From Nitrospirales bacterium (GTDB lineage: Bacteria; Nitrospirota; Nitrospiria; Nitrospirales; UBA2166): DNA of 37,043 nucleotides. The stretch's first letter is position 1. Every line of letters begins with the position of its first letter. The stretch covers positions 1 to 37,043 of the forward strand of contig DTRN01000064.1 in assembly GCA_012965905.1 (NCBI GenBank). Reading direction: 5' to 3'. The notes beneath the pieces were generated by a model. The model was not told where the DNA came from and did no database searches. It saw only the letters and a list, made by a program, of their open reading frames with translations. Shown here one piece after another: positions 16,861-34,863 of the stretch. Made by a program: the position numbers and the translations under genes.

Positions 16861-17850
16861 GTGAACACAGTACACACTCCATTACTCGACGTCAGAAACC
16901 TGTCGACATCTTTCTTCACTGAAAACGGTGAAGTAGGTGCGGTACAGGATGTGAGCTTTCAAATCCAGGCAGGAGAAACCCTCGCCCTGGTTGGGGAATC
17001 CGGATGTGGAAAGTCAGTCACAGCTCTTTCAATCATGCAATTGCTTGACTATCCAGGACAAGTCGTTAACGGCCAGATTCTCTTTGACGAGCAGGACCTG
17101 ACGCAAGCTAGCGAACCAGAACTTCAAGCCATTCGTGGCAATAAGATCGGAATGATCTTTCAGGAACCCATGACATCGCTCAATCCGGTATTCAGAATCG
17201 GCGATCAAATTGGAGAAGCATTATTCACACACAAGGGTTTTACCAAAGAGCAGTCAAAAGCCGAATCTCTACGATTATTGGATCGAGTAGAAATTCCCTC
17301 ACCTGAGAGACGAATCGATCAATATCCCCACGAGCTTTCAGGTGGGATGAAGCAGCGAGTGATGATCGCCATGGCCCTCGCGTGCGGCCCCGACCTACTC
17401 ATCGCGGACGAGCCAACCACTGCACTCGATGTGACGATTCAAGCTCAAATTCTCGATTTACTAAGAACCTTGCAGGACGACATGGGCATGGCCATCCTCT
17501 TGATCACACACAACCTGGGGATCGTGGCACAATTTGCTCGTAACGTGGTGGTCATGTACGCTAGCAAAATCGTGGAGCGAACTGATGTGCTGACGCTCTT
17601 TAAGAACCCGCAGCATCCATATACAAACGCCCTTCTCAATGCGCTTCCCCGCCCGGGGCAACAGTCCACCCGTCTTGCATCAATTGACGGCATGGTTCCC
17701 TCCCCGCTTCTCTATCCCCGAGGCTGCCACTTTGCGCCTCGTTGCAGGGATCGACTCGACCACTGCATGGATCAGAAACCAGCGTTAATTCAAACCGAGC
17801 CTACGCACGAGACAGCCTGTTGGTTGTACGACAAATCAGAGGTGCAATGA
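16861..17850 (+). CDS. oppD: Peptide ABC ATPase D
   Basis: [24 protein letters not shown] and C-terminal GCHFAPRC...ACW. Confidence 0.95.
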
Positions 17851-19484: not shown

Positions 19485-20485
19485 TGACAAGCAAGATCAA
19501 ACAGTCGAATAATACGCTTCTTCAGGTAGACAATCTCAAGAAGTATTTTCCCGTTCGTAGCGGAGTATTTTCAAGGATTGCTGGATGGGTGAAAGCCGTT
19601 GATGACATATCGTTCAAGATTTATGAAGGCGAGACGCTAGGACTGGTCGGCGAGTCAGGATGCGGAAAAACGACGGTAGGGAGAACTCTCCTTCGCCTCA
19701 TGGAGCCAACGTCCGGGACTGTCGTCTTCGATGGCAAAGACATCACAGCGATGGACACAGCACAACTTCGGCACACCAGGCCGCACATGCAGATTATTTT
19801 TCAAGATCCATACAGCTCCCTGAATCCACGCATGACCGTCGGATCAATCATTGGCGAAGCCATGAGCGTCCACGGACTCACCAACGGCCAAACACCGGCA
19901 CAAAGGGTCGCCGCGTTACTTGAGCACGTAGGTCTGTCCCCAACCTATCAATCCCGCTATCCCCATGAATTTTCCGGGGGACAACGACAACGGATCGGAA
20001 TTGCGCGAGCCCTGGCCTTGAAACCAAAATTTATCGTGTGCGATGAAGCCGTCTCGGCCTTGGATGTGTCAATCCAAGCCCAAATTTTGAACCTGCTTCA
20101 GGATCTTAAGGAAGAACACAACCTGTCCTACCTATTCATCTCCCACGATCTCCACGTTGTGCAACACATTGCGAATAGGGTTGCAGTCATGTATCTCGGC
20201 AAACTCGCGGAAGTTGCGCCTGTTGACGAACTGTTCAAAGCACCAAAACACCCCTACACCCAGGCCTTAATCTCAGCAAATCCCATCCCCGACCCAACCC
20301 TCAAGACAGAACGCATTCCCCTTTCCGGTGACGTACCCTCTCCGCTCAACCCTCCGTCGGGATGCCGTTTCCACACCCGCTGCCCCCAAGTCATGGACCA
20401 CTGCAAAACAACAGAACCACCACTGATTCAAATTGGGGAAGGAAAGACACAGCACCAAGTGTGGTGCCACTTATATAACGAGTGA
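19484..20485 (+). CDS. oppF: Peptide ABC ATPase F
   Basis: [33 protein letters not shown]...CHLY; ATG at 19484. Confidence 0.95.
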
Positions 20486-20521
20486 CAGAAAAAAACCGTG
20501 CTTTGTGTGAGAGGGAATCCG

Positions 20522-20888
20522 TTACTTCGACAGCTTGGTAATTTTCGATCCTGCGAGGGAGAGGTCGTACATGAGGCCCTTGTTGGAAAAGATGAAGCCG
20601 ATGATGGGTTCTCGGGCAGTATTCGTACCGATCTCTCCACCAGCGCCTATGTCGGCAATCGCGACGCTCGCATCAACGCCCACTTCCCATCCGCCGCTGT
20701 GGCGGAATGATTCCAACACAAGTTCGGTCATGAAAAGAATGATCTCGGTTTTTACCTGCGCTCCCAGCTGAAACCCGATGGATGCCGCAGCCCAGCGCAT
20801 CTACTTCAGCTTTTGAAGCGGCGAATGACTCCGTGACACTGAGAAGCATCGTTATGACTACAGCGAAAATAACACAGATGTTTCTCAC
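20522..20888 (-). pseudogene. Ysc84/SYLF lipid-binding exported protein, internally deleted and frameshifted
   Basis: One frame (GTG 20888 after AAGGAG) gives a signal peptide plus AASKAEVDA. A second frame from about 20791 gives AASIGFQLGAQ...GWEVGVDASVA...FSNKGLMYDLSLAGSKITKL, a SYLF C-terminal half. The usual GVLVFP...KAG segment between them is absent. Confidence 0.75.
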
Positions 20889-20907
20889 GACCAGAAGTCT
20901 TCTCCTT

Positions 20908-21747
20908 TCATGAAATCGAAGCGAGGAATTTCTGATATAAACGATGGTAGATTTCACCAGGTTTGCCATCGCCAATTCGATGCTCGTCGACTGTTACTAC
21001 GGGCATAATCTCTATGGTCGTCCCGGTCAAGAAAACCTCTTGGGCACCCAACAGCATCTCCAGTGAGACAGGCTCTTCAGCAACTGTAATTTCGTTCGCA
21101 CGGGCTAAGTTTAACACCCAATCGCGTGTGATTCCCGACAGAATCCTTGGCCCTTCGGGTGGCGTGTGCAATACGCCATGTCGGACCACCATGATGGTGC
21201 TACTTGAGCCCTCGAATACAAACCCGTCCCTGACGAACAAGGCCTCGAACGCCCCGGCTTGCGTAGCGTGTTGCTTCGAAAGGATGTTCGGAAGCAAATT
21301 CAGCGATTTAATATCGCAGCGATTCCATCGGATGTCATCAACGGTGATTGTCGGAACCCCGCTTTCTCGAAGCTGTGGGTCCTCGAGATCGATTTCACGT
21401 ACGGTCATGACCCTGGTGAGGGGTGCGGAAACCGGAAAGCGATGATCACGTGGCGAGACGCCACGCGTTAACTGGATATAGATTTTGGCGTCAGCATACC
21501 CGCTCCGATCGATGCCTTCGCGAACGATTCTTTCCCACTCTTCATACGAAAGACGTTCGTCCAGCTGTATAGATGCAGCGCTGAGCTTGAGTCGATCGAC
21601 ATGTTCTCGCAGCAAATGCGGCGTCTTGTCATACACTCGGATGACTTCATAGACTCCATCACCAAACTGAAACCCTCGATCCTCAACAGACACGAAGGCT
21701 TCTGAAAGCTTCATGAATTCGCTATTGAGATAGGCAATATCAGACAT
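20908..21747 (-). CDS. dat: D-amino-acid aminotransferase (PLP class IV)
   Basis: Motifs EDRGFQFGDGVYEV, QLTRGV, RCDIKSLNLL, EGSSS, ILSGITR. Confidence 0.9.
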   Translation of the reverse strand: MSDIAYLNSEFMKLSEAFVSVEDRGFQFGDGVYEVIRVYDKTPHLLREHVDRLKLSAASIQLDERLSYEEWERIVREGIDRSGYADAKIYIQLTRGVSPRDHRFPVSAPLTRVMTVREIDLEDPQLRESGVPTITVDDIRWNRCDIKSLNLLPNILSKQHATQAGAFEALFVRDGFVFEGSSSTIMVVRHGVLHTPPEGPRILSGITRDWVLNLARANEITVAEEPVSLEMLLGAQEVFLTGTTIEIMPVVTVDEHRIGDGKPGEIYHRLYQKFLASIS

Positions 21748-21758
21748 GTGGTTTGACC

Positions 21759-22058
21759 TTATGATTTCACAGATACAACGTAGTCACGCCGCTTGATGGC
21801 GGTAAAACGCCAGCCCAACCGTTTCTCAAATGCCAGTTCATAGGTCCCAGGCTGATCAGCCTGAAACTGGAATATCCGCGTTCCAGAATCATTGATGGTT
21901 CCGCCAGATTTTCGCTCGAAATCATCATCGATGAGCAGCATCTGCTCCGAGTCATAGGTTGATACCCACAGTTCACCACGCGTCCGATCTTCCCACAGAC
22001 GAATCTCAAAGGTTTCTCCAGCCTTTGCGGTTATGGTTTTTTCTTGTCGATCATTCAT
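21759..22058 (-). CDS. Chagasin/I42 protease-inhibitor-like Ig-fold protein
   Basis: About 99 aa from MNDRQEK: GETFEIRL, G..W, GTRIFQFQA..PG...L.F....W. Confidence 0.65.
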   Translation of the reverse strand: MNDRQEKTITAKAGETFEIRLWEDRTRGELWVSTYDSEQMLLIDDDFERKSGGTINDSGTRIFQFQADQPGTYELAFEKRLGWRFTAIKRRDYVVSVKS

Positions 22059-22467
22059 CGTTCTGGACACAGGGGCGAACCAGTTTTCCGGACACGCCCC
22101 CTCGGGCTCCGGCAAAATTCGTAAATGTCCCATCCATCACCCCGCCTGTGCGTCGGAGCAACATGCTTTCTTCCGAGAAACCACCTGGAAAATCCCACCG
22201 AATATACACGGTGTTCCCGTTGACAATAAGTTTCGACGGAACTGGGCCTGCATTGGGATTTGGGGGAACCTGTAACACATACTGATATTCTTTATGATTC
22301 AACATATTGTGGACATGCATCTCCCATACACCACAAATCTTTTCCAGCCCGTGCCATTCGGTCGTAATTTGTGTCATGCCTTTTTCTTCGGCTCCAACGC
22401 CAAGAGGGAAAAGGAGAATACAGCCGATAATACATACACCGCCGATGCTACACAATCTCGCAATCAT
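22051..22467 (-). CDS. Hypothetical exported protein
   Basis: Signal-like N-terminus from ATG 22467; beta-rich mature part with a Cys near each end; its stop overlaps the next start. Confidence 0.65.
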   Translation of the reverse strand: MIARLCSIGGVCIIGCILLFPLGVGAEEKGMTQITTEWHGLEKICGVWEMHVHNMLNHKEYQYVLQVPPNPNAGPVPSKLIVNGNTVYIRWDFPGGFSEESMLLRRTGGVMDGTFTNFAGARGGVSGKLVRPCVQNDE

Positions 22468-22504
22468 GTTTCTACGCTGACTCCTCTGCGATGGTGAGTA
22501 ATGA

Positions 22505-23572
22505 TCAGACGTCCTGTTCCTTCCCAGGAAATAAACCGCGAGGCAGCGTAGAATCATACCCATGCAAGAAAAAATTGACCGCATAGCCTATCCCCTGCGA
22601 CCACAATCCATACACAACATCAAAACCTGCTTCTCGCTTCAATGGAATAAATCCTTCCAGCGTTACCGGCCCGGTATATCCCCATTCCATCGCAGGAATG
22701 GTTTGAAACTCATCCGGGGTACCGTCGCGATCATTATCCCTCATGACCGTCGTCACCTGAGGTGCGTTCACCACATCAGATAGGGATCCGTCAATACCCA
22801 AGACCAATTGGAGCACGACACCTCCATCCTTGCCAATGGAGGTTTTGAGACGTCCTTGACGATTCCCTGTTGATCCTGCACGGTAACTGGTGGCAATCGC
22901 TCGATGCGGGCTTTGCTTAATCACCTCGATAAGATCGGTATATTCCACATGCCACCACTCAACTTGCCTAGTATCCGCCGCGACGTCATCGTCCAATATC
23001 TCCAATTCATCATCATGAAAGTATTTCCTGAATCCTGCCCAAAAATCCCGTTGGAGTTCCTTCTCACTCACGGAAGACGTTGTTTTTAGGAACCACCGGT
23101 CGTAGTCATTTTGCACCCCAGTGAGCACATACATTTTGGTCTCATAATCAAATGCATGTTTCATCACCCACCATTGGCCCGTATCTGCCAAAAACGTAAG
23201 GAGCGGCGCAGCGATCAGCAGGAAACACCCGAGTAAGAATTTTTTCATGCGTGGCATTTGACCCGGCAGGGGTCGACGCACGAGCCGAACCATCTCGTAG
23301 ATGAGCACCGCACCGAGCAACAGACTCGCAATCGCAAGCACTTCCCACACCGGCGTACCCACGACCGTACCCACTGAAAGCCACTTTGACGGGTGGGTGA
23401 GCATAAACCATCCTAATTTGATGCCTTTGATCCCATTTCCAAGATTCACCAGGATAAGGATAATTCCAAGAGCCACAGCTATCAACACTGCGGCAGCCTG
23501 ACAAACCATCACCCCGATGGATTTCATGAGGACGGTGCGCCGCTCAGTGTCTGCGTTCGCTTCAATCGTCAT
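22505..23572 (-). CDS. Hypothetical membrane protein (3 N-terminal TM helices plus soluble domain with DxDxDG motif)
   Basis: Long ORF with hydrophobic segments and RDNDRDGTPD. Start uncertain (23572 or 23527); the track start at 23677 overlaps comM. Confidence 0.65.
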   Translation of the reverse strand: MTIEANADTERRTVLMKSIGVMVCQAAAVLIAVALGIILILVNLGNGIKGIKLGWFMLTHPSKWLSVGTVVGTPVWEVLAIASLLLGAVLIYEMVRLVRRPLPGQMPRMKKFLLGCFLLIAAPLLTFLADTGQWWVMKHAFDYETKMYVLTGVQNDYDRWFLKTTSSVSEKELQRDFWAGFRKYFHDDELEILDDDVAADTRQVEWWHVEYTDLIEVIKQSPHRAIATSYRAGSTGNRQGRLKTSIGKDGGVVLQLVLGIDGSLSDVVNAPQVTTVMRDNDRDGTPDEFQTIPAMEWGYTGPVTLEGFIPLKREAGFDVVYGLWSQGIGYAVNFFLHGYDSTLPRGLFPGKEQDV

Positions 23573-23585
23573 CGGGTCATCTACC

Positions 23586-24398
23586 CTACGCGACAAGCCG
23601 CCGGTCAAGGTTTCGATACTGGATCGCTTCAGCAGCATGTTGCAATTCGATGTCAGCCTTTCCCTCAAGGTAGGCAATCGTTCGCGCCACTTTCAATACG
23701 CGGGAAAACGCTCGCGCAGACAGACCCAGTTTATCGATCGCACGTTCAATCATCTCTCTGATGTTTTTCGTAATCTCGCAATATGTTCGCACATGTCGCG
23801 GCTTTAATTGTGCGTTGCAGTATACCCGTTCCCTAGCATACCGCTCAGCTTGGATCTGGCGAGTCTTCACCACTCGCGTTCGAACGGCGGCAGACGGCTC
23901 CGCATCGGCTGGTTGTGCCACCTCATGGGTGCTCACAGCAGGAACGTCAACATGCATATCAATCCGGTCAAGAAGCGGCCCCGAAACGCGCGAACGATAC
24001 CGACGGATCTCAACAGGGGTACATCGACACGGCCGCTGGCTATCGCCTAAAAATCCACAGGGACAAGGATTCATCGCCCCAACCAACACGTAATCACGAA
24101 GTCGATCCCCATCAATGGCACCGTCAGCGACAAGCAGACCAACCGCCATGGGCAGGTCAAATCCTGCCCCTTCTTTTTTAATATCTGCCGGGGCTAGATT
24201 GATGGTGATCCGCTTTAATGGAAACTGAAACCCCGTATTCTTCAATGCTGCTCGGACACGATCGCGACTTTCCTTCACCGTGGCATCCGGGAGTCCAACA
24301 CCCGAGAACATGGGCAGGCCACTTCCCAAATCGACCTCAACCTCAACAAGGTGCGCATCTAATCCGGAGACATCTGCGCCCATCACCTTTGCAATCAT
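23586..24398 (-). pseudogene. comM: ComM/YifB Mg-chelatase-like protein with in-frame deletion of the AAA+ core
   Basis: N-terminal VGLPD...ESRDRVRAA...INLAPAD..KEG..FDLP joins directly at DYVLVG|AMNPCPCG to C-terminal SGPLLDRID...LSARA...VARTIA. 270 aa versus about 500 aa typical; no Walker A or B. Confidence 0.85.
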
Positions 24399-24654
24399 AG
24401 TTCCCTCGGCACTTCGTCACCAAAAAACCGCCGGAGTATAACAGCCTCAGCCCATCGCGTCATGACACAACATTGCCTACAATCAGATTCAATTAAGCAC
24501 TAGGTGTTATAAACGGGGCAGTGACTAGGATGCCGGCAGACATGATCTGTCGGATGCCTTGTGGCATAACACGAAAACGCCGTTGATGCACCAACTTTGG
24601 GGTTATTCCCGAACGGTACAGGCCAGCAACCTTGCGAATGTGGGTCCTATAGAA

Positions 24655-25443
24655 TTACGACGAATAGCTGATTTCTGCTTTTGTAGCCAGGACTGCTCTC
24701 CCAGAAATTGTGATTCTTTCACCCTTGTCTTCACAAAACAGCTCCCCTCCCCGATCAGAGAGTTGCTGTGCGTGCAACGTGGCTTTTCCCAGGCGAGCAG
24801 CCCAATAGGGAACCAACGTACAGTGTGCTGATCCGGTGACCGGATCTTCGGGAATCCCGGCGTTCGGCGCGAAGAATCTGGAAACAAAATCGACGGATTT
24901 TCCAGGAGCCGTCACGATTATGCCCAATACATCACGAACCTGTGACAATACTTGAAAGTCAGGTTTCATGTTTCGGATCGCTGATTCATCTTCGAATACG
25001 GCAAGCACGTCTCGTGATTTCAGAACTTCGCTCGGTGCAACGCCAAGCCCGTTGGTTAGGGTTGCACTGGATGCTGCTTTTTCTGCCGGCCTTGCGGGAA
25101 AGTCCATCGATAGGAGATCACCACGCTTCTCAACGTGTAATATGCCACTGTCAGTCTTGAAATTCACATGTGAAAGGCCTGTGGCGACATTCGAAAAAAT
25201 AACAAAGCCACTGGCCAGGGTGGCGTGCCCACATAAATCAACTTCTACCTTTGGCGTAAACCATCGCAGTTCATATTCAGAGCCGCTTCCGACGAGAAAC
25301 GCGGTCTCAGAGACGTTGTTCTCACACGCAAGTTTTTGAAGTGATTGATCATCCAACCAGCCTTCAAGAAGGCAGACCGCGGCGGGATTCCCCTGTAATC
25401 CCACACCGGTGAATGCATTCACCTGAAACATCGGGATTTTCAC
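24655..25443 (-). CDS. PhzF-family isomerase/epimerase
   Basis: Motifs GNPAAV, SETAF, LRWFTP..EVDLCGHATLA, EDPVTGSAH. Confidence 0.93.
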   Translation of the reverse strand: MKIPMFQVNAFTGVGLQGNPAAVCLLEGWLDDQSLQKLACENNVSETAFLVGSGSEYELRWFTPKVEVDLCGHATLASGFVIFSNVATGLSHVNFKTDSGILHVEKRGDLLSMDFPARPAEKAASSATLTNGLGVAPSEVLKSRDVLAVFEDESAIRNMKPDFQVLSQVRDVLGIIVTAPGKSVDFVSRFFAPNAGIPEDPVTGSAHCTLVPYWAARLGKATLHAQQLSDRGGELFCEDKGERITISGRAVLATKAEISYSS

Positions 25444-25597
25444 GCCGTGTATGACATTCCAATAGCAGAACCCAGGTTACCCGGCGATTGGCCACCTCGT
25501 TCAGCACAACAACGACGCCCCGGTCTCAAGTCTGGCTCTCCACGTTGACGACGTTATTCCTGCACATCCTTTAAGAGAAGGTGTTTGCGCCCATCGG

Positions 25598-26221
25598 TCA
25601 ATGCAGCCCCCCTTCGAGGAAACGACGGACTTCAATCACCTTCCCTATAATAGAACAGTGCCCTGGCAATGGAACAATGGGCTTAAAATTATTATTTGAA
25701 GGATGCAGTTCAATCCGCTGTCGACGAATTTTCAGAGTCTTGATCGTTGCCTCATCATCGACCAGCGCGACGACGATATCACCCGATTCCGCTGTGGGCT
25801 GCGATCTGACAATTGCAATGTCCCCCGGAAGAATTCCAGCACCGGTCATGCTTTCGCCACGTATCCGAAGACCAAAAATGCCTTCGGCCGTCCTGGTCCG
25901 CATCGGAATGTGCCCCTCGATATCTTCGATGGCCGTCGCCAATGCCCCTGCTTGAACTCGCCCAAGAATCGGGATGAGTACTGGAGGAGGTCCTGTCGTC
26001 TCCCCTGCTGGAAGACTGTAGCCTCGTGCAATGCCTGATTGCTTGGCCAGGCGGCCTTCGCTGACAAGCCGTTCAAGATGTTCGCGGGCCGTTTGGACTG
26101 CACGAAAACCAAGCGCGTCCTGCACCTCCCGCACCGTGGGCGGAAGCCCGCACTCAAGCCGATCTCGAACAAAGCGATACACACGCTCCCGGGTTTTTCC
26201 TGGCGGGGTATGAGGTGACAT
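25598..26221 (-). CDS. lexA: LexA transcriptional repressor (LexA2-like)
   Basis: PPTVREV winged HTH, GRVQAG cleavage site, GESM (catalytic Ser) and ATIK (catalytic Lys). Confidence 0.93.
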   Translation of the reverse strand: MSPHTPPGKTRERVYRFVRDRLECGLPPTVREVQDALGFRAVQTAREHLERLVSEGRLAKQSGIARGYSLPAGETTGPPPVLIPILGRVQAGALATAIEDIEGHIPMRTRTAEGIFGLRIRGESMTGAGILPGDIAIVRSQPTAESGDIVVALVDDEATIKTLKIRRQRIELHPSNNNFKPIVPLPGHCSIIGKVIEVRRFLEGGLH

Positions 26222-26256
26222 TCACCAACCATACCAGACAAATGTCTTGTTTGCAA
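26222..26256 (-). promoter_or_regulatory. Sigma70 promoter of lexA with palindromic operator; probably leaderless
   Basis: Minus strand reads TTGCAA-(17 nt)-TATGGT-(6 nt)-ATG. The spacer holds AGAC-ATTT-GTCT (26236-26247). No clear SD. Confidence 0.7.
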
Positions 26257-26277
26257 GAGGAAGGAAAATATGAGTGT

Positions 26278-27060
26278 TTACGACGTCACAGCCGACTTTG
26301 GACGAGTGGTGAACTCCGGCAACATTCTGACAAGGTGAAATGCATACGTCTGAACCAGCACCCACAATCCATATAATCGTCGTGGGCCGGAGACTGGGTT
26401 CATGAGGACGTATTTGGCAATTTCTGAAAGTGGAGGACGCCCCGTGTGTACGTTCATCGCGCCGAGTTCTGGCAATGGCAAGGCCGGCGTATCGACGACG
26501 ACTCGCGCGACCACCCATGGTATGTCCTGCTCGATAGCCGCTCGCGCGATGCCATAACTTTCCATATCGACCGCGATGGCCTCGTGGTGTTTTGCGATTG
26601 CGGCTTTTTCAATGGCACAGTGTATTGGGTCATCGGCAACAGTCACCAATCGCCCCTCGTGCCACTGCGGGTTCTGTTGGAGAGCATGGCAGAGACGATT
26701 CGCTAATGTGTCGTCTGAACTCTGGACGGATTTGAGCGTCGGCCATTTCTCGTCGGCCTTTCCAATAGCACGCACATCTCCAGTGACCACCCAATCAGCA
26801 ACGTTCAGGCCAGGGATCAATGCCCCACACGTTCCAGCAGAAAGCACGTATTCCGGATTGAATCGTGTAATCGCTTCTGCCGTGGCCTGATATGCCTGCT
26901 CAGGCCCAACGCCGGTGGTAACCGTAATAATTCTTGTGTCATTAGAGAGAACACCTTCATACCAGGCTCGCGCCCCGTTCACAGGCGTGGCGTGGAGCCC
27001 CTTGACGACGGGCCGCATCTCGTCATCACCTTCGATAAGTATTAAAAGAGATTTCATCAA
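26278..27060 (-). CDS. Nucleoside phosphorylase-fold protein (HpnG/MTA-SAH nucleosidase-like)
   Basis: Motifs TGVGP, SAGTCGAL, AVDMESYGIA, ARVVVD; directly downstream of hpnA. Confidence 0.75.
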   Translation of the reverse strand: MMKSLLILIEGDDEMRPVVKGLHATPVNGARAWYEGVLSNDTRIITVTTGVGPEQAYQATAEAITRFNPEYVLSAGTCGALIPGLNVADWVVTGDVRAIGKADEKWPTLKSVQSSDDTLANRLCHALQQNPQWHEGRLVTVADDPIHCAIEKAAIAKHHEAIAVDMESYGIARAAIEQDIPWVVARVVVDTPALPLPELGAMNVHTGRPPLSEIAKYVLMNPVSGPRRLYGLWVLVQTYAFHLVRMLPEFTTRPKSAVTS

Positions 27061-27068
27061 TGATTCCT

Positions 27069-28052
27069 TCAGATCATCCCCTGTTCACGAAACCATGCGA
27101 TCTCTTCTTTCAATGACTCTCGAATTTGACCGGGAGCATACCCGAGTTCGCGTTTGGCTTTTTCGATGCTGACGTAATGTGGATATTTCCCCATGCGCAC
27201 CGAAGCCAGGCAGGCCAACGGTTCCTTATTGGTGAGTCGCCCGGTGATCTCGCCCATCACACCACCAATCAGGGTCAGCGCGTATGGGACCTTCACCTTC
27301 GGCGATGGCACACCCGACAACTCTCCCAATATATCGAGAAAGCCTTTCAAGGAGATATTCTCTCCTCCAATGATGTATCGCTCCCCTACTTTTCCTTTTT
27401 CTGCCACCAGACAATGTCCTTCTGCCGCATTCCGAACATCCACCACATTCAAACCCGATTCGGTGTAGGCGGGAAAATTCCCTTTAAGAAATTGAACCAC
27501 CGTATGGCCAATCGGCGAGGGCTTGGCATCGCCAGGTCCAATGGGCGCAGTCAGGTTGATGATGGTCACGGGAAGTCCGTCCTTTGCCGCAGCCACGGCG
27601 ACACGGTCCGCTTCCAGCTTGGAAAGTTCATACACTCCAACCGCCTCATGATCGTCCTTTAACATCGTTTCGTCTGCAGACGGCGAGTTCTGGCCACGTC
27701 GAAGCACTGCCGCAGTGCTGGTATGAATGATTCTCTGAACCTTTGCTTTGCGTGCGGCAGAAAGCACGTTACGCGTCCCTTGCGTATTGGCGGCTCGCAT
27801 CGCCTCCGGATCCCTGGTAAAAAATTTGACGTTTGCAGCCAGGTGATACACCTGTTCACAATCCTGAACCGCATGCTCCAAGCTAGGAAGATCGAGAATA
27901 TCGCCGTGCACGATGTCGACCTGCTGCCCCTTCAGCCCAGCGTGATCTGAATCCTTGCGCACCATCGCGCGAACGCTAGCCCCACGTTCGACAAGCCGCC
28001 GACACAGATGTGCACCGACAAAGCCATTGGCTCCAGTAACTAGAACATTCAT
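27069..28052 (-). CDS. hpnA: Hopanoid-associated NAD-dependent epimerase/dehydratase (HpnA/DFR-like)
   Basis: TGANGFVG, YHLAA, YELSK, PIGPGDAKPSP, GLNVVDV, GERYI, KAKRELGY. Confidence 0.8.
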   Translation of the reverse strand: MNVLVTGANGFVGAHLCRRLVERGASVRAMVRKDSDHAGLKGQQVDIVHGDILDLPSLEHAVQDCEQVYHLAANVKFFTRDPEAMRAANTQGTRNVLSAARKAKVQRIIHTSTAAVLRRGQNSPSADETMLKDDHEAVGVYELSKLEADRVAVAAAKDGLPVTIINLTAPIGPGDAKPSPIGHTVVQFLKGNFPAYTESGLNVVDVRNAAEGHCLVAEKGKVGERYIIGGENISLKGFLDILGELSGVPSPKVKVPYALTLIGGVMGEITGRLTNKEPLACLASVRMGKYPHYVSIEKAKRELGYAPGQIRESLKEEIAWFREQGMI

Positions 28053-28081
28053 TGATTTTCCTTATTGATACGAGAATGCAC

Positions 28082-28531
28082 CTACATCCGCATAATGAAA
28101 TAACACGCCTTATTTAACCCGCCCAACCAACTTTCGTCGTGGAGTGTAGCCGCTTGACGACTCAGAAATCCAGCATGACGTATCGCAACGATTGTTCCTG
28201 CAAAGCTTTTAGAAAAATCGACCGTCACGATGGTCTCGTCAGCCAACTCCTGCGGTTCTTCGATGGCCCAGTTCAACACCATAGATTTCGGCCGTTCGAT
28301 TGAGGTGAATGCACCTGATACGGTGTACAACATGTCCTCACGATTATTCTCGCACTTGATGCGGAATGGTTCTCCAACGCCCGTACTCCCCTCGCACACC
28401 TCAAGCGTATGTATCCACCATTTGTCCCAGAATGCGTGATTGTCAAAATACCAAAAGACCGTATCGACTGAAGCCGGCACGTCCTTTGATACCGACACCG
28501 TAAATTGATTGTCGCACTCTTCTATGGCCAT
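28082..28531 (-). CDS. SRPBCC/AHSA1-domain protein
   Basis: VSGAF..IERP...VLNW, ETIVTVDF, GTIV.I.H.GF, H...W pattern. Confidence 0.7.
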   Translation of the reverse strand: MAIEECDNQFTVSVSKDVPASVDTVFWYFDNHAFWDKWWIHTLEVCEGSTGVGEPFRIKCENNREDMLYTVSGAFTSIERPKSMVLNWAIEEPQELADETIVTVDFSKSFAGTIVAIRHAGFLSRQAATLHDESWLGGLNKACYFIMRM

Positions 28532-28543
28532 CGATCGACGTTG

Positions 28544-29164
28544 TCACTGCACCATAAAAATCTGAAAATTCTGCTTTGGCAAGAAGTCGAATTCCTGGAC
28601 AAGACGATAGCCTGCAGCTTCCATCTCGCTTCGAATGTCTGCTGCCGGGGTGATATGGCCAAACAACCGCTGAAACCAAGTCCGTCCCTCAAAGTCGATG
28701 ATGGCGACTCGCCCTCTCGGACGCAGATACTGCTTAGCATGTTCAAAATAGGCAACCCGATTTTCAACATGATGATAGGTGTTACAGATAAAGATCAGAT
28801 CGACGCCCTGTTCAGGCAGCAGAGGATCATCGTTGGTCGCGACGACGCTTGTAATGCTGGGATATCCGTCGGCCTGCGCCTTGGCGTCCACATACGCAAC
28901 CATCTCCTCGTCAACATCGACCGCATAGACATTCCCGTCAGCCCCGGTCGCATCTGCTAGCCGGAAGGTAAAGTAGCCACCGCCCGACCCAAGATCCACG
29001 ATGTGCTCTCCCGATCGAATACCCAGCGCCAAAATGACGCGTTCCGCTTGCTGCCATCCATCACGCTGAAAACCTTCGTAAAGAGATCGCTTGATATCCC
29101 CGCAACCAGCACTGATCGCCAGAAGCAGAGTAACAGTCAACAGTCTGTAGATCACGTGACTCAT
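28544..29164 (-). CDS. Class I SAM-dependent methyltransferase with lipoprotein-type signal
   Basis: VDLGSGGGYF, VYAVDVD, NTYHH, LRPRGRVAIID; N-terminal LLLAISAGC lipobox. Confidence 0.88.
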   Translation of the reverse strand: MSHVIYRLLTVTLLLAISAGCGDIKRSLYEGFQRDGWQQAERVILALGIRSGEHIVDLGSGGGYFTFRLADATGADGNVYAVDVDEEMVAYVDAKAQADGYPSITSVVATNDDPLLPEQGVDLIFICNTYHHVENRVAYFEHAKQYLRPRGRVAIIDFEGRTWFQRLFGHITPAADIRSEMEAAGYRLVQEFDFLPKQNFQIFMVQ

Positions 29165-30132
29165 AGGCTCACAACGTTTTTTGGCGTACCTGCGTTAAAG
29201 GCTTGGATATTTTCTGCCAGCCGATCGACGAGCCGCTGACGTGCCTCCCGGCTCGCCCATGCGATATGCGGGGTGATAATAAGATTGGGGATACTCGGGT
29301 CAAGGAGAGGATTTCCATCCGTCGGAGGCTCATTGGTCAGCACATCGACCCCCGCCCCGCCGATACGGCCTTGCTTCAACGCATCGCGTAATGCGGCTTC
29401 ATTTACCACCCCGCCACGTGCGGCATTGATTAGCAACGCACTGGGTTTCATCAATGCAATCTCTTTTTCAGCAATCAGATCATTCGTTTCGGGTGTGAAG
29501 GGACAATGCAACGTGAGGACATCGGCTTGTGCGAGCACATCTTCAAAAGCGATCCGATTTTCACGCACTTCAGTGACACCGCGACGTTCCGCAATTAAGG
29601 ACTCCATTCCAAACGCCTCTCCGACTTGCTCGACTGCGCGGCCAATCGCGCCATACCCAACGATGCCAATTCGCTTGCCATGCAATTCTGAGAATGGAAA
29701 ATCCAACGCACAAAACTGTTGGCTTTGCTGCCACACGCCGAAAGACACAGCACCTTGATAATCAGACAACCGGGTCATCAGCCCAAGAATCATAGAAAAG
29801 ACCACTTGGACCACCGACTGAGTCGAATAGCCTCGCGCGTTACAGACAACAATCCCAAGCTCCGTCGCAGCCGTAAGGTCAACGTTGTTGACCCCCGTCG
29901 CAGCGACAGTAATCAACTTCAAATTTGATGCTGCTGCCAGGACCTCTCGACGCATAGGAGTCTTATTACAAATCACAACCTCAGCAGATCCAATACGCTC
30001 AACAGCATCTTCAAGACGCGTGTGCGGATAGAATGTCAGATCCGGAACCGCCTGTTTCAACGAACCCAGATCAAGTTCGTCCGGCTGTATGGAATCGGCA
30101 TCAAGAAAGACACCGTGGGTACAAAGGGACAT
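29161..30132 (-). CDS. hprA: D-2-hydroxyacid dehydrogenase (glycerate dehydrogenase/HprA-like)
   Basis: ATGVNNVD, GIVGYGAIG, LHCP, INAARG, DVL..EPP, TPHIAWAS. Confidence 0.9.
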   Translation of the reverse strand: MSLCTHGVFLDADSIQPDELDLGSLKQAVPDLTFYPHTRLEDAVERIGSAEVVICNKTPMRREVLAAASNLKLITVAATGVNNVDLTAATELGIVVCNARGYSTQSVVQVVFSMILGLMTRLSDYQGAVSFGVWQQSQQFCALDFPFSELHGKRIGIVGYGAIGRAVEQVGEAFGMESLIAERRGVTEVRENRIAFEDVLAQADVLTLHCPFTPETNDLIAEKEIALMKPSALLINAARGGVVNEAALRDALKQGRIGGAGVDVLTNEPPTDGNPLLDPSIPNLIITPHIAWASREARQRLVDRLAENIQAFNAGTPKNVVSL

Positions 30133-30143
30133 GCGTTATTTGT

Positions 30144-30377
30144 TTACCAAATGAGAGCGTCCCGAATTTTCTTAGGCAGGGGGGCATCGAAGTTCTTATG
30201 TATACGAATCTTCCCGCGTGCAGTGCCGGGAGTTTGTCGTTTGGCCTTTTGTATGACCGGAACCAAACGGGCGATCGGCTGACGTCCTTTTGAGATGATA
30301 ATCTCCTCTCCTTGCCGGACACGATCCAGCAGCTGTGAAAGATGGATTTTCACTTCTTGAATAGTAACCACACTCAT
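30144..30377 (-). CDS. Phd/YefM-family antitoxin, no adjacent toxin
   Basis: VKIHLSQLLDRVRQGEEIII...PIARLVP...G.ARGKIRI..NFDAPLP. Palindrome ATTACC-C-GGTAAT (30383-30395) lies just upstream. Confidence 0.85.
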   Translation of the reverse strand: MSVVTIQEVKIHLSQLLDRVRQGEEIIISKGRQPIARLVPVIQKAKRQTPGTARGKIRIHKNFDAPLPKKIRDALIW

Positions 30378-30524
30378 GGTGTATTACCCGGTAATTTAGA
30401 GTACGTCCTCACCTTTGCGTGTAGATCCTGTCATCGGTCACCGCGATGATCCTACCGATACTCGATATGAGTATCAAGCAGGCAACTTGACTTTCTGACA
30501 AGGCGAGATAAAACTGTTTTTCAT

Positions 30525-31577
30525 ATGAAACCAATCATCGATCTTCGCAGTGATACGATGACGAAGCCGTCGCCCGGGATGCGTCAGGCTATTGCTGAGG
30601 CAGAGGTTGGCGACGATGTCTGGGGAGAAGACCCGACGGTCAACAAGCTCGAGGCCTTTGCCGCCGAGATGTTGGGAAAGCCTGCCGCGATTTTCGTTCC
30701 CAGCGGGACGATGGCCAATCAGATTGCCGTCCGATCGCTGACCAACCCCGGTGACGAGATTATCATTGAAACTGGCGCGCATATCGTCAGATATGAAAGT
30801 GGAGCGGTCTCGGCCCTTTCCGGCATCCAACCCTGCATGTTGTCTGCCCCACGTGGCATTCTGACTGCTGAACAGGTTGAAGCCGCGATCCGACCGTCGG
30901 ACATTCACAATCCTCCGACCACGCTGATCTGTCTCGAAAATACACATAACCGCGCAGGAGGAACGGTCTATCCCCTCGGAACCATCTCGCAAATACGCGA
31001 TATCGCAACATCCAGAAACGTTGCCATGCATCTCGACGGCGCGCGCCTGTTCAACGCGGTCTGCGCAACCGGCATCGCACCTGACGTGTATGCATCACGA
31101 TTCGAAACGGTTTCATTCTGCCTTTCGAAAGGACTGGGTGCGCCGGTGGGATCGATGGTGGTGTCGAGCGAAAGCCGCATCGCACGCATGCGGCGCATTC
31201 GGAAAATGTACGGCGGAGGCATGCGGCAAGCCGGCATTCTCGCAGCCGCAGGCTTATATGCCCTAGAACACAATATCGCCCGCCTTCACGAAGACCATGC
31301 CAATGCACAGCTTCTCGCACAGGGATTAGCAAAGATACCGGGGGTCGCGATCGACGAGAAAACAGTCGAGACGAATATCGTGCTGTTTGATGTTGGCGGG
31401 ATGACTCAGAAACCAGATCAGCTATTCGACAGACTCAAAGACGAAGGAGTTCTCGTTTCACGCTTTACACCAACGACATTTCGCGCTGTCACCCACCTCG
31501 ATGTTTCACGGCAGGATATTCTGGATGCGATAGATAGCCTCAAGAATGTTCTCGAGAGCAAATCTCTAAAGAGATAA
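30525..31577 (+). CDS. ltaE: Low-specificity L-threonine aldolase
   Basis: DLRSDT, GDDVWGEDPT, SGTMAN, LENTHN, HLDGAR, CLSKGLGAPVGS, GGGMRQAG. Confidence 0.96.
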   Translation: MKPIIDLRSDTMTKPSPGMRQAIAEAEVGDDVWGEDPTVNKLEAFAAEMLGKPAAIFVPSGTMANQIAVRSLTNPGDEIIIETGAHIVRYESGAVSALSGIQPCMLSAPRGILTAEQVEAAIRPSDIHNPPTTLICLENTHNRAGGTVYPLGTISQIRDIATSRNVAMHLDGARLFNAVCATGIAPDVYASRFETVSFCLSKGLGAPVGSMVVSSESRIARMRRIRKMYGGGMRQAGILAAAGLYALEHNIARLHEDHANAQLLAQGLAKIPGVAIDEKTVETNIVLFDVGGMTQKPDQLFDRLKDEGVLVSRFTPTTFRAVTHLDVSRQDILDAIDSLKNVLESKSLKR

Positions 31578-31591
31578 ACGGAGAGCGCGCT

Positions 31592-31813
31592 ATGCAACAT
31601 TACCCTTGGAGCTACCGTCTGTTTCTGGCGACAGGAGCGGGGTGGATATCCATTTATTTTAAGTTTCCTTTCGACATGGGTCACTTGCCTTCTGGTGATA
31701 CCTTGAGTCTGATATTTGCTGGGATCATACTTGTGTTTGCGGTTGGAGGAGTCGCACTGGGACCCATTGTGTTTATGTTTGAGTTCGCTGCCGTCCGCAA
31801 TAAGGATCAATAA
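31592..31813 (+). CDS. Small 2-TM hypothetical protein
   Basis: GGAG RBS, two hydrophobic segments, fills the gap between co-directional genes. Confidence 0.55.
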   Translation: MQHYPWSYRLFLATGAGWISIYFKFPFDMGHLPSGDTLSLIFAGIILVFAVGGVALGPIVFMFEFAAVRNKDQ

Positions 31814-31838
31814 GGATGACGATTAAAGGAAAGCGACT

Positions 31839-32567
31839 GTGATCTTCGAAGCCTATGTATTCGGAGGACGTCTTGGCATGACGTGTATCGGAATATGTAT
31901 GCTCGTCTCTATTTTGGCGTGTGACAAGAATGAGCCTGCTGCCCCTCGTGAGGAACCCATTCAACAGCAGCAACACGAACCAGTACCGCTACCACCACAA
32001 GGCACTGAAACCACGGAGCCCAGCGAACCCGTTCAACCTACTGGACATATCATCCGTGGGTATGCCTCGCCTGAAGAAGCCTATGAACAATGTGAACAGG
32101 CACGGAAACAGCAGCGTTGGGTCACGGCCCTTGATTGTCTCACCGAAGACGCTCAGGATGACGCGTTGCTGCAACTTCACCGCGCACTCACCCAACTGAT
32201 TCAACTGCAGGAAAACGCCAGAGCATTTGGGCCTGCCAAATCACACTCCACAACCGAGGCTTTAAAAGAGAAGGCCCTACACGCTCTCAAAACAAAGTAC
32301 ACTGCGATTGACGCGGCAAACAACAATATGTCAGCGGTCCTGCCTACAAAATACGAGTACTTCAGGGATATCATGGACTTTCTGTCCGAATACGGCCAAA
32401 GTCTGGAGCCAACGCAGCAGTCACTGATCAATGTGAGCATTGATGGTAATACCGCCACCGGCATGGCAGTCAACACCTACGAGAACGGGGAAGAGAAGAA
32501 GTCCAGCGATATCAATTTCAAACGAATCAACGGCGAATGGTTCAAAGATGGTGAAGTCACCAATTAA
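31839..32567 (+). CDS. Hypothetical lipoprotein
   Basis: Lipobox-like SILAC, Pro/Gln/Glu linker, C-terminal ...IDGNTAT...INFKRINGEW. Start may be ATG 31878. Confidence 0.7.
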   Translation: MIFEAYVFGGRLGMTCIGICMLVSILACDKNEPAAPREEPIQQQQHEPVPLPPQGTETTEPSEPVQPTGHIIRGYASPEEAYEQCEQARKQQRWVTALDCLTEDAQDDALLQLHRALTQLIQLQENARAFGPAKSHSTTEALKEKALHALKTKYTAIDAANNNMSAVLPTKYEYFRDIMDFLSEYGQSLEPTQQSLINVSIDGNTATGMAVNTYENGEEKKSSDINFKRINGEWFKDGEVTN

Positions 32568-32574
32568 CGCGCTT

Positions 32575-33357
32575 TTAATCGGATAAAGAGATTCCCCGAA
32601 GTTTCTGCAATCGTGCGCGATTCGCTTCCAATTTCGGCAAGTCATATTTTTCATCGATCCGAACCACGCGTTCCAGCAAATCAGCGGCCTTTTGAAGCTT
32701 GCCCTGTCGCTCATAGCCTTCCGCCATCAGATACCAGGCGCTGGCCATACGTAGTTCATCTTTGAGTCGCTGTGCAATGGCAAGGCCGGTCTGGCAGACG
32801 TCGATGGCATCATCATAGCGTTGGCCCTTGAGGTAGGCGCGCGCGGTCATGCGAAAGGCGTCTGCCATGGTGGTATCCTGCCCCATACGTTTTGCCAAAG
32901 TGACAGACTGCTTGCAATGCTCAATCGCTTCATCAAGTTGATACGTCTCCTTTGCCACATATCCCAAATCCAAATAGACCATCGCTTTGCTTGTGACATC
33001 CCCAATTCGATCCATGAGGTCTAAGGCTTCAAAATAATGCGCCTTGGCACGTTCCCATTCTTCACCATCCGCGCACAGGTTTCCCAAGTTTACAAGCGTA
33101 ATACTAATCCCGCGGTCATCTCCGAGATTCCGCTGCAGGTCGAGCACTTCCTGGTAATATCGCTTTGCTTCAGGCCGGCGATCACTGACTGCACAGATAT
33201 TGCCCAGATTGCCAAGGGTCATGGCCAGCGCGCGTGAATCGCCGTGCTCGCGGTCAACGTTCAACGCCTGCGCGTAGTGCCGATACGCGTTCGCATAATC
33301 ACCCCGAGAAAAGTACGCGTTGCCTTGTCGGTTGAGCTGTTGCGACGATGATTCCAA
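32575..33357 (-). CDS. Cytoplasmic TPR protein (TPR_12/MalT-like repeats)
   Basis: Repeats LGNLGNI...YYQEVL and LVNLGNL...YFEAL. Likely TTG start at 33357 after AGGGAG, downstream of the flavoprotein stop. Confidence 0.85.
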   Translation of the reverse strand: MESSSQQLNRQGNAYFSRGDYANAYRHYAQALNVDREHGDSRALAMTLGNLGNICAVSDRRPEAKRYYQEVLDLQRNLGDDRGISITLVNLGNLCADGEEWERAKAHYFEALDLMDRIGDVTSKAMVYLDLGYVAKETYQLDEAIEHCKQSVTLAKRMGQDTTMADAFRMTARAYLKGQRYDDAIDVCQTGLAIAQRLKDELRMASAWYLMAEGYERQGKLQKAADLLERVVRIDEKYDLPKLEANRARLQKLRGISLSD

Positions 33358-33367
33358 AAACGGCTCC

Positions 33368-34552
33368 CTATGCGACCCGACCTGCAGCCTGCCCCGACGC
33401 CCAGGCCCACTGAAAATTGAATCCCCCGAGATGCCCAGTGACGTCGACGACTTCCCCGATACAGTACAGGCCAGGTTGCCGCTTACACTCCATGGTCTTT
33501 GACGACAATTCATCGGTATCGATGCCGCCCAGCGTGACTTCTGCGGTACGGTAGCCCTCGGTGGAGGCGGGCGTTATCACCCAGTCGTGTATCTGCTTCG
33601 CAACCCGACGCACCAGATCGTCGGGAATTTCAGCCAGAGGTTTCTCCGACGATGCCGGCCAATACAGCCGCTGGAATTCCAGCACCAGAGCACGAGGAAG
33701 AACTTCAGCGAGCACCGTGCGCACTAGCGTCTTCGGTTTCCGTTTTTTGGCTTCCAGCAACAGCGCAACGGCGTCATGTTCAGGCAACAGATTTATCCAT
33801 ATGTCATCACCAGGCATCCAATAATTGGAGAGTTGCAGCACCGCGGGACCGCTGAGTCCGCGATGCGTAAACAGAATATTCCCGGTGAACGTCACTGCAG
33901 AGACGCTCAGGGATGCGCTCACACTGATACCAGATAAGCGTCCCGTCAACTCGTGCATCGCGCCGGAGAATGTCAAAGGAACCAGGCCTGCGCGTGTATC
34001 GCGCACTCTCAGACCAAATTGACGCGCCAGTCGATAGCCCAAATCAGACGCACCCATTTTTGGAATCGAGAGACCACCGGTTGCCACCACCAGTGACCCA
34101 GCCGAAAATTCTCCTTGGTCACACGCGACGACATAGCATTGCTGATGCACGACTGACGCGTTCGTGCAACCTGTCAATATGCGCACATCCACTTGCGTGC
34201 ACTCTGTGACAAGCATGGCGAGAATGTCTTTCGATGACTGATCGCAAAACAGTTGCCCTGCCGTTTTTTCGTGATAGGCAATGCCGTGCTTTTCGACCAG
34301 GGAGATGAAATCCCACTGTGTATATCGGCTGAGTGCGGAGATACAGAAATTTGAGTTTGCGGATATAAAGCGTGTCGGCTCGCAGTGGAGGTTTGTGAAA
34401 TTACAGCGCCCGCCGCCCGAGATGAGTATTTTCTTGCCGATCTTGTTTGAGGCTTCGAGCACGACAACACGGCGCCCTCGATGTCCTGCCGCTATCGCAC
34501 ACATGAGTCCGGCAGCGCCTCCACCCAGGACAATAACGTCATAATCGGACAC
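33368..34552 (-). CDS. HI0933/YhiN/BaiN-family flavoprotein
   Basis: GGGAAG, GKKILISGGGRCNFTN, ATGGLSIP, LFTHRGLSGPA, AEVTLGG, GGFNFQWAWASG. Confidence 0.95.
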   Translation of the reverse strand: MSDYDVIVLGGGAAGLMCAIAAGHRGRRVVVLEASNKIGKKILISGGGRCNFTNLHCEPTRFISANSNFCISALSRYTQWDFISLVEKHGIAYHEKTAGQLFCDQSSKDILAMLVTECTQVDVRILTGCTNASVVHQQCYVVACDQGEFSAGSLVVATGGLSIPKMGASDLGYRLARQFGLRVRDTRAGLVPLTFSGAMHELTGRLSGISVSASLSVSAVTFTGNILFTHRGLSGPAVLQLSNYWMPGDDIWINLLPEHDAVALLLEAKKRKPKTLVRTVLAEVLPRALVLEFQRLYWPASSEKPLAEIPDDLVRRVAKQIHDWVITPASTEGYRTAEVTLGGIDTDELSSKTMECKRQPGLYCIGEVVDVTGHLGGFNFQWAWASGQAAGRVA

Positions 34553-34584
34553 GTTGGCGGGATGAGTTTTCAGCTAACGTTTGG

Positions 34585-34863
34585 TTACTTGATCGCGTTG
34601 TAGATAGCAGGATTTTCCTTTCCACTGACATTCAGAATCCCTACCGCGCCTTTATCAATACGGAAGATCGAATGATCGACAATCAAGTAGTTTCCTGGCA
34701 CGTCTACGGTGAACTCTGCTACGGGCGGGACCGCTGGAGCAAAGGTCAAATGCGCATTTTCCGCGACTTCTTTTGCCAGGAGACTTGGAGAAAATTCGGA
34801 TATCAGGAGCGCACACACACCCAGAATGAATAGAGTTGAATAAAACAGTTTTCTTAAGATCAC
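34585..34863 (-). pseudogene. nirK: Copper nitrite reductase (NirK/AniA-type) remnant: signal peptide and N-terminus fused in frame to the last ~45 aa
   Basis: GTG 34863 after GAGGAGG, then a signal peptide and AHLTFAPAVPPV joined to AEFTVDVPGNYLIVDHSIFRIDKGAVGILNVSGKENPAIY, which matches the AniA/NirK C-terminus including VDH. Type-1 Cu ligands are absent. Confidence 0.8.

Follow-up and report, generated by a model that had tools for sequence, protein, structure and literature searches.

Bacterial genes that have become dispensable are inactivated and then deleted; the resulting pseudogenes are short-lived, and closely related genomes are found at different stages of the process. Mira, Ochman and Moran reportedly addressed such deletional decay in bacterial genomes in 2001. 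In host-restricted bacteria, with Mycobacterium leprae as another example besides Sodalis, reductive evolution deletes recombination and competence genes as well as accessory metabolism, and the genomes show very many pseudogenes and a low coding density. Developmentally excised elements, i.e., the nifD and fdxN elements of heterocystous cyanobacteria and the skin element in sigK of Bacillus, provide another case of a gene that exists with and without an internal segment; this segment is foreign DNA that interrupts the gene and encodes a recombinase, and the gene is restored by excision. ComM/YifB is a hexameric AAA+ helicase of natural transformation. Deletional decay of pseudogenes is the subject of Kuo and Ochman (2009, PMC2817411; 2010, PMC2916853) and Danneels et al. 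(2018, PMC6054270); PMC7067036 and PMC3091646 deal with host-restricted bacteria such as Sodalis and their reductive evolution, and a preprint (10.1101/2024.02.06.579203) relates to ComM/YifB.

The stretch of DNA analysed here (the window) is a contig of 37,043 nucleotides from a Nitrospirales bacterium, on which three genes, comM, nirK and a SYLF/Ysc84 lipoprotein gene, have lost their middle and kept both ends (Table 1). Very probably, they are young pseudogenes that arose by internal deletions of dispensable genes in a small-genome, free-living marine genus of the Nitrospirales. Full-length orthologues in relatives, collinear flanks and the lack of a second copy in the assembly identify the remnants as pseudogenes formed by internal deletion. 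The phenomenon is the stepwise deletional decay of pseudogenes and no new kind of system. There is no essential difference from the described cases; here, public metagenomes show its stages in an uncultivated deep-sea Nitrospirales population, and two of the genes happen to have a large in-frame deletion as their first lesion. The genome (G000) is a metagenome-assembled genome (MAG) of 200 contigs with 88.6% completeness, and its population was detected in hydrothermal-vent, vent-plume and seawater metagenomes. An earlier note on the window had singled out the three genes and described the comM and nirK junctions as in frame and the Ysc84 junction as frameshifted. Profile matches and alignment to full-length relatives, against which the breakpoints of all three genes were set, confirm both statements.

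Table 1. Positions of the three remnants and their parts in the window
Feature	Positions	Strand	Remarks
SYLF/Ysc84 lipoprotein gene, whole remnant	20522-20907	minus	frameshifted; about 60 codons missing
SYLF/Ysc84 5' part: signal peptide and ...SFAASKAEVDA	20796..20907	minus	counterpart of residues about 1-33 in the intact copy of 183 aa (G004:C84)
SYLF/Ysc84 3' part with native stop, in a different frame	20522..20791	minus	88 C-terminal residues; PF04366 E 3.8e-12
comM remnant, whole	23586-24398	minus	270-aa open frame
comM remnant, codons 1-107, Lon-like ChlI N-terminal domain	24078..24398	minus	ChlI match; 59-70% identity to N-terminal parts of full-length ComM from 25 genomes of the order
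comM remnant, codons 108-270 and stop: end of the AAA+ module from the NPCPCG motif, Mg_chelatase_C	23586..24077	minus	profile matches
nirK remnant, whole	34585-34863	minus	92-aa frame; 106 aa counted from an upstream TTG
nirK remnant, codons 1-47: signal peptide and ...HLTFAPAVPP	34723..34863	minus	alignment to intact sister-species NirK
nirK remnant, codons 48-92 and native stop: last strands of the second cupredoxin domain	34585..34722	minus	TIGR02376 positions 276-320 of 326

In the comM product, residues 20-109 match ChlI (profile positions 1-88 of 121; PF13541, E 6.6e-31), residues 103-159 correspond to no more than the final 57 positions of Mg_chelatase (PF01078, 150-206 of 207), and residues 167-262 match Mg_chelatase_C (PF13335, E 2.9e-29). 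The family model TIGR00368 is hit in two stretches with 286.5 bits, below its cut-off of 362.4, and model positions of about 106-339 are absent. Codon 108 is fused in frame to codon 107 at 24078/24077; in the alignment to six full-length orthologues, 238 residues are gone between G107 and A108, and this segment contains Walker A (GPPGSGKT) and Walker B (LFLDE) in all six. The remnant shares the N-terminal ChlI/Lon-like domain and the C-terminal Mg_chelatase_C domain with ComM/YifB, but it cannot be a working member of this family because the ATPase core is absent. A gene for a membrane protein lies directly downstream of comM.

The frame of the 5' part of the SYLF gene continues out of register past residues ...SFAASKAEVDA (about 20796). 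The 3' part is 73% identical to residues 95-182 of the intact sister copy and matches NF049970 at positions 106-193 of 194 with 119.4 bits, below the cut-off of 200. No single frame of the gene encodes a lipoprotein signal peptide followed by a full-length SYLF domain. The nirK junction falls between P47 and V48 (34723/34722) and is in frame, with 248 of 340 codons missing. In comparison with a sister species, whose intact NirK has 340 aa, residues 1-45 and 282-340 are kept and residues 46-281 have no counterpart; the two complete cupredoxin domains that carry the copper sites are lacking. On TIGR02376, the remnant scores 30.7 bits over only those model positions listed in Table 1 (cut-off 296.3), and intact sister genes score 344-346 bits. 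While the truncation of nirK described earlier is thereby confirmed, two short forms exist rather than one. The second has 110 aa and holds 18 more residues; sequence from run X15 corresponds to it and carries 54 additional nt at the junction, and the two forms differ by four amino-acid changes and two silent changes. A flavoprotein gene is located 33 nt downstream of nirK.

The junctions recur in public data. The 270-aa ComM cluster comprises 11 proteins from NCBI, JGI, ENA and Logan, nine of which cross the junction, all with the sequence YVLVG/AMNPCPCG, and the junction is present in eight further protein variants from independent public assemblies. The 92-aa NirK form belongs to a cluster of eight proteins, and its junction is likewise found in seven other variants from independent public assemblies. 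At the DNA level, a Logan contig of 14,496 nt from run X5, possibly the source sample of the MAG, covers window positions 20000-27987 with 12 differing letters and zero gaps and crosses the SYLF and comM junctions, whereas the nirK junction is seen in protein records only. Among the contigs listed for the four runs, none extends by at least 31 letters to each side of the 92-aa nirK junction; near it, one X5 Logan contig ends at 34676 and the next starts at 34695, and among the pieces listed, the match of an X11 Logan contig to the window ends at 34734. An assembly or scaffolding artefact, by which the middles were dropped through collapse or a closed gap, would suit a MAG of 200 contigs and the X5 contig breaks within 50 nt of the nirK junction, and two of three junctions in frame are allowed by chance alone (p about 0.26). 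This alternative, which had been raised in the earlier note, is nevertheless extremely unlikely given that several non-identical protein variants, drawn from independent assemblies and sources, share identical junctions, that an independent contig crosses two of them, that repeats long enough for a collapse are absent, and that comM and SYLF are gone from the same slots in sister species.

Programmed or site-specific rearrangement, in which internal segments are excised and re-inserted and intact and deleted forms alternate, has an even slighter, almost negligible probability. Re-used break positions may be cited in its favour, as the 92-aa and 110-aa nirK forms both break after APAV(P/Q)P, and 24077 is a break position common to the 270-aa comM form and that of X15. 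However, the three junction sequences are mutually unrelated and one of them is out of frame. Recombinases and inverted repeats are absent at the junctions, and a repeat search of the flanks revealed no IS ends and no IS-like or long repeats there, which agrees with the earlier statement that IS scars are lacking. The missing middles were not found elsewhere in the assembly, an absence that a MAG of 88.6% completeness does not prove, and the endpoint in sister species is a clean loss. Unlike in the nifD, fdxN and skin elements, the gene's own core is gone, and excision would destroy the gene. A special mechanism and an assembly error are both disfavoured, and the three remnants look like the products of ordinary deletion.

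It is also very improbable that the in-frame short forms are functional mini-proteins under selection, consisting of the N-terminal and C-terminal domains of ComM and of the signal peptide and tail of NirK. Both frames are open from native start to native stop, and the 270-aa ComM form, in its eight variants, has just four variable positions. Yet the short forms are limited to one species-level population, with the next matches at ≤82% identity and of different architecture, and the catalytic parts, i.e., Walker A/B of ComM and the copper-site part of NirK, are lost. Moreover, decay continues in other strains by additional deletions and a frameshift: in Logan contigs, comM of run X11 skips an additional 558 nt, and in run X15, 495 nt are swapped for 46 letters and a 1-nt deletion is present at 24158. 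The congeners have no trace of comM at all.

Differing decay states are also apparent across species. None of the four congeners has ComM above the cut-off or any trace of comM; in the three other families of the order, ComM was matched in 26 of 26 genomes, 25 of which have both parts in one open frame of 502-730 aa. The comM slot measures 84 nt in G002 and 157 nt in G004 versus 847 nt here, and in a metagenome relative (L117) the membrane-protein gene comes immediately after phzF, with no comM. SYLF is intact in one of the four congeners, and its slot spans 116-331 nt in G001, G002 and G004 versus about 430 nt here. NirK is intact in three of the four. DprA was detected in none of the five genomes of the genus, as compared to 24 of 26 genomes above the cut-off in the other families, and ComEC exceeds the cut-off in one of five versus 25 of 26. 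In G000, comEC is reduced to a 95-aa 3' stub (C60:2742-3026). Nearly all genomes in the order's other families retain all three competence genes. These distributions support the view that the loss of comM belongs to a wider loss, that of the entire natural-transformation set of this genus, which fits the earlier proposal that deletions erode dispensable genes.

A special or intense erosion as in host-restricted lineages, which had been suggested as well, does not agree with the genome-wide count. The pattern of both ends kept was observed in 2 of 989 orthologue comparisons in G000 versus one credible case in 1011 in G002, where two of four internal-deletion flags were chaining artefacts (negative gaps), one was a non-coding-strand-like ORF, and one was retained. 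Partial genes number 17 and 15 per about 1000 orthologues in G000 and its closest sister genome, each compared against the other, and ORFs cover about 92% of G000 and 90% of the sister genome. The remnant load is low and symmetric between the two. In contrast to host-restricted genomes, remnants make up 1-2% of the compared genes, and the organism, present in vent-plume and seawater metagenomes, resembles a streamlined free-living genome. A scan for in-frame stops with long open flanks did not single out the gene with an in-frame TGA pointed out earlier.

The positions of the three remnants within 14 kb were given correctly in the earlier note, but the cluster is not clearly beyond chance. At 20-30 remnants per genome, three of them are expected within 14.3 kb somewhere with a probability of roughly 0.2-0.7 (scan-statistic approximation), the remnants of G000 are spread over at least 14 different contigs, and the window was chosen by a reader and not randomly. 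We therefore regard a locally deletion-prone, flexible region that concentrates remnants as unlikely, even though three remnants lie in 14 kb, most ORFs from about 24.4 kb onwards are without orthologues in the fetched 81% of G002, synteny to G001, G003 and G004 is interrupted in several places, and an orphan antitoxin gene, present only here, is located in the same stretch.

For ordinary deletional decay, we infer the following order of events, the molecular mechanism of deletion and the neutrality of the losses. Genes would first have lost their necessity in a free-living marine genus with small genomes (about 1.9-2.3 Mb), and the general bacterial mutational bias towards deletion would then remove the dispensable genes in pieces. 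The first hit would have removed the core, with slippage or illegitimate recombination at very short repeats as the probable cause, and subsequent hits would trim the remaining gene ends; in sister species, nothing is left at the same chromosomal slot. comM is the final trace of the natural-transformation gene set (ComEC, DprA, ComM) lost by the genus, and nirK and the SYLF lipoprotein gene are accessory genes with patchy occurrence across it. The microhomology proposed earlier as a possible driver of the deletions is plausible for comM, where the motif (V/M)LVG flanks the break on both sides in intact relatives, and weak for nirK, with about 2 nt; the relatives used for this comparison share 55-88% identity at the protein level or 72-85% at the DNA level.

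Re-use of the 5' breakpoints in nirK and comM and the in-frame state of five of eight large deletions led us to consider that decay is not purely random. The short repeat that remains at a junction might seed the next slippage, and selection in a compact, operon-dense genome might favour non-polar in-frame deletions, after which translation would still reach the native stop and the downstream gene would stay expressed; we rate this as quite unlikely. The in-frame proportion has a binomial p of about 0.09 versus 1/3, and no in-frame excess is claimed since the sample is biased, in-frame forms being more readily noticed. An association of in-frame deletions with co-directional downstream genes is consistent with comM, nirK and SYLF but is contradicted by an MlaD remnant on contig C9, which is frameshifted and yet has a co-directional gene 25 nt downstream.

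The locus offers a natural snapshot of gene disappearance, with genes that have lost their core, are further shortened or are gone across strains and sister species. That the genus has given up the ComEC/DprA/ComM route of transformation bears on gene exchange of abundant plume and deep-water bacteria. Public records that list the 270-aa product as 'ATP-binding protein' or 'hypothetical protein', and those of the 92-aa ORF, call for a pseudogene flag, and NirK should not be credited to this population in metabolic reconstructions. A search of a limited paper collection yielded nothing on these remnants or on competence-gene loss in marine Nitrospirales. A metagenome scan with LexA as query returned 80 loci, the best at 86% identity, none of them with comM, nirK or SYLF; LexA in the window is intact.

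Profile matches, together with alignments to orthologues and sister-species genes, bear out that the SYLF/Ysc84 lipoprotein gene, comM and nirK have each lost their core and kept both ends, as the earlier note had described. As also claimed there, the remaining parts of comM and nirK are joined in frame, with 238 and 248 codons lost, respectively, as compared to about 60 codons and a frame change in Ysc84. In the comM remnant, two domains are intact, ChlI/Lon-like (PF13541, E 6.6e-31) at the N-terminus and Mg_chelatase_C (PF13335, E 2.9e-29) at the C-terminus. The AAA+ module matches at its last 57 of 207 positions alone, and TIGR00368 scores 286.5 bits, below its cut-off of 362.4. The number of residues missing from ComM was exactly the same in all six alignments, each to a full-length orthologue from the same order. 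The nirK remnant matches TIGR02376 at positions 276-320 of 326 alone (30.7 bits vs 296.3) and, compared with the intact gene of three sister species (product of about 340 aa), retains residues 1-47 and the last 45. In the SYLF remnant, the signal-peptide part and 88 C-terminal residues, the latter matching NF049970 positions 106-193 of 194, lie in different frames; of a 183-aa protein, about 33 residues remain at the N-terminus and about 90 at the C-terminus.

Coordinates of gene remnants and deletion junctions (window positions unless a contig of the source assembly, G000, is named; a hyphen within a motif marks the break)
Feature	Position	Strand	State	Basis
SYLF/Ysc84 lipoprotein gene	frame change at 20791-20796	minus	internally deleted, two frames	
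comM remnant	23586-24398	minus	open frame, 270 aa, internally deleted	
comM junction	G107/A108, 24078/24077	minus		alignment to six full-length orthologues
nirK remnant	34585-34863	minus	92 aa (106 aa from upstream TTG), internally deleted	
nirK junction	APAVPP-VAEF, 34723/34722	minus		comparison with intact sister-species nirK
MlaD-like gene	G000:C9:9963-10590		113 residues lost, frameshifted	tblastn vs ORFs of the closest sister genome, G002
comEC 3' stub	G000:C60:2742-3026 (L197)		95-aa open frame	model positions 622-663 of 663, extreme C-terminus

The junctions are not an artefact. Assembly collapse, raised earlier as an alternative, is contradicted by a 14,496-nt Logan contig of sequencing run X5, possibly the source sample of the assembly, which covers 20000-27987 without a gap and with 12 different letters, and so crosses both the SYLF and the comM junction. 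It is further contradicted by the recurrence of the short ComM and NirK forms in protein clusters. The 270-aa ComM form belongs, at 90% identity, to a cluster with 11 members (NCBI, JGI, ENA, Logan), one record of which is titled 'Nitrospirales bacterium'. Nine members cover the junction: eight have 270 aa and one has 265 aa, and the window's own protein is among the nine. The junction is identical in all of them, with variation at four other positions. The NirK short form is represented by eight proteins, of which six have 92 aa and two 106 aa; support for this junction comes from these protein records, as no contig among those listed for four runs bridged it with at least 31 letters on each side. 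A search of the source assembly for the missing segments, as suggested earlier, placed them nowhere else: TIGR00368 matched the two window pieces of comM and, weakly, other AAA+ proteins, and in tblastn with intact NirK and SYLF proteins the window remnants were the sole matches.

The absence of IS scars was confirmed, with neither IS-like ends nor long repeats at any of the three junctions. The proposed microhomology is plausible for comM and weak for nirK. Full-length ComM orthologues read VLVG-ELSLDG at the N-side boundary of the missing segment and MLV(A/V)-AMNPCPCG at its C-side boundary, and the closest protein retaining the core (P0143, 356 aa) reads VMLVG-AMNPCPCG. A (V/M)LVG-coding repeat thus probably flanked the comM break on both sides, as judged from proteins rather than ancestral DNA. 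For nirK, relatives at 72-85% identity allow no more than about 2 nt of microhomology to be read.

Decay is ongoing in other strains, with variant forms found for both genes. NirK also exists in another short form, of 110 aa (P0122; 124 aa as P0142), which shares the N-side break and retains 18 more residues (ASPLESVQTTTVPSAGAT). A contig of run X15 agrees with this form, as its two pieces overlap at 34724-34734 and leave 43 letters unmatched, yielding 54 extra nt. In comM, a contig of run X11 lacks another 558 nt (23793 to 24352), and one of X15 has 23582-24076 swapped for 46 letters and one base missing at 24158. Two small oddities are that the same 5' breakpoint was used again in variant forms of both genes, and that five of eight large deletions are in frame (our own binomial p of about 0.09, from a biased sample).

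The four sister species share 67-84% DNA identity with the window region. ComM was found in none of them by protein search, and none scores above the family-model cut-off; against 847 nt in the window, the comM slot of G002 has 84 nt and that of G004 157 nt. A metagenome relative (LexA identity 76%) has a membrane-protein gene directly after phzF. SYLF was found in G004 alone, at a different location, and its slot of about 430 nt compares with 116-331 nt in G001, G002 and G004. NirK was not found in G001 (98% complete), the one sister species in which it is not intact. In the other three families of the order, ComM was matched in all 26 genomes, with both parts in a single frame of 502-730 aa in 25 and a contig end interrupting the 26th; DprA and ComEC scored above cut-off in 24 and 25 genomes, respectively. 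Within the genus, DprA was found in none of five genomes and ComEC scored above cut-off in one (G003, contig-truncated). In the source assembly, a comEC stub lies 176 nt after glmM, and the remainder of the gene is absent. Because these genes are widespread in the other families and so depleted in the genus, the comM remnant is the last stage in a loss that took in the complete set of transformation genes.

A 1.73-kb nirK block is common to G002 (L029, 2070-3803) and G004 (L030, 1785-3517) at 96.5% identity. Its flanks do not align, and the remaining shared DNA of both genomes has about 74-84% identity to the window. This suggests recent within-genus transfer of a nirK cassette, or binning overlap.

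The load of such remnants was counted genome-wide, as had been proposed, by tblastn in both directions with ORFs of at least 100 aa from G000 and G002 (1.52 Mb compared, about 81% of the genome), excluding best matches below 50% identity (126 G002 ORFs; 243 in the reciprocal run). Among 989 G002 ORFs with a G000 orthologue, 804 matched end to end in a single piece, 76 were interrupted by contig ends, 84 were partial elsewhere, 23 had frame changes, and two, nirK and the MlaD-like gene, had both-ends-kept internal deletions. The latter lies in an mla-like ABC transporter operon (C9:9960-11042) that is decaying, with 39% of the ATPase gene left and a permease ORF of 151 aa vs 270 aa in G002. In the reciprocal run, one credible case was seen in G002 among 1011 comparisons, a sulfatase-like protein of 747 aa of which the first 70 and last 82 residues remain, joined in frame. 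Genes of at least 150 aa with under 70% of their length remaining, not counting losses at contig ends, numbered 17 in G000 (14 contigs) and 15 in G002. As this screen is blind to remnants of genes fully lost from G002, such as comM and SYLF, there are perhaps 20-30 remnants per genome. With that number, the chance of one three-remnant cluster within 14.3 kb in 1.89 Mb is about 0.2-0.7 by our own approximation. Gene content is poorly conserved among congeners in the window beyond about 24.4 kb, which may contribute to a build-up of dispensable genes in that part. In the reverse direction, a 580-aa TPR-like protein is intact in the window (17742-19484, plus), and G002:C8:122738-122851 retains no more than its first 38 codons.

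Of the erosion interpretation, real deletions of dispensable genes stand; a host-restricted type is not supported. The metagenome-assembled genome, of which the window is contig C64 in full, has 1.89 Mb in 200 contigs (completeness 88.6%, contamination 0.6%). A 10-kb stretch was present in 19 of 21 public runs listed, from 12 studies, labelled as hydrothermal-vent or seawater metagenomes, barring some small records whose organism names are codes. Together with high ORF cover (92% in G000 and 90% in G002, a crude upper estimate) and a low, symmetric remnant load, these labels point to a free-living, small-genome lineage rather than a host-restricted one. The process is the usual deletion-driven decay of pseudogenes in bacteria (PMC2817411, PMC2916853 and PMC6054270).

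Further features of the window were noted. A Phd/YefM antitoxin gene (PF02604, E 6.2e-10; 30144-30377, minus) is an orphan with no adjoining toxin gene and just 11 nt to the next gene; at the corresponding place G003 has about 25 nt and G004 about 73 nt, which restricts the gene to the window species among its congeners. The 250 nt at 31577-31826, with a 73-aa membrane-like ORF inside (31592-31813, plus), are about 80% identical to non-syntenic places in G002 (C8:87474-87728) and G004 (C52). The TGA at 3153-3155 closes a 461-aa ORF with an 85% identical G002 orthologue and is followed by 86 further open codons in frame; it is possibly the 'in-frame TGA gene' of the earlier note.
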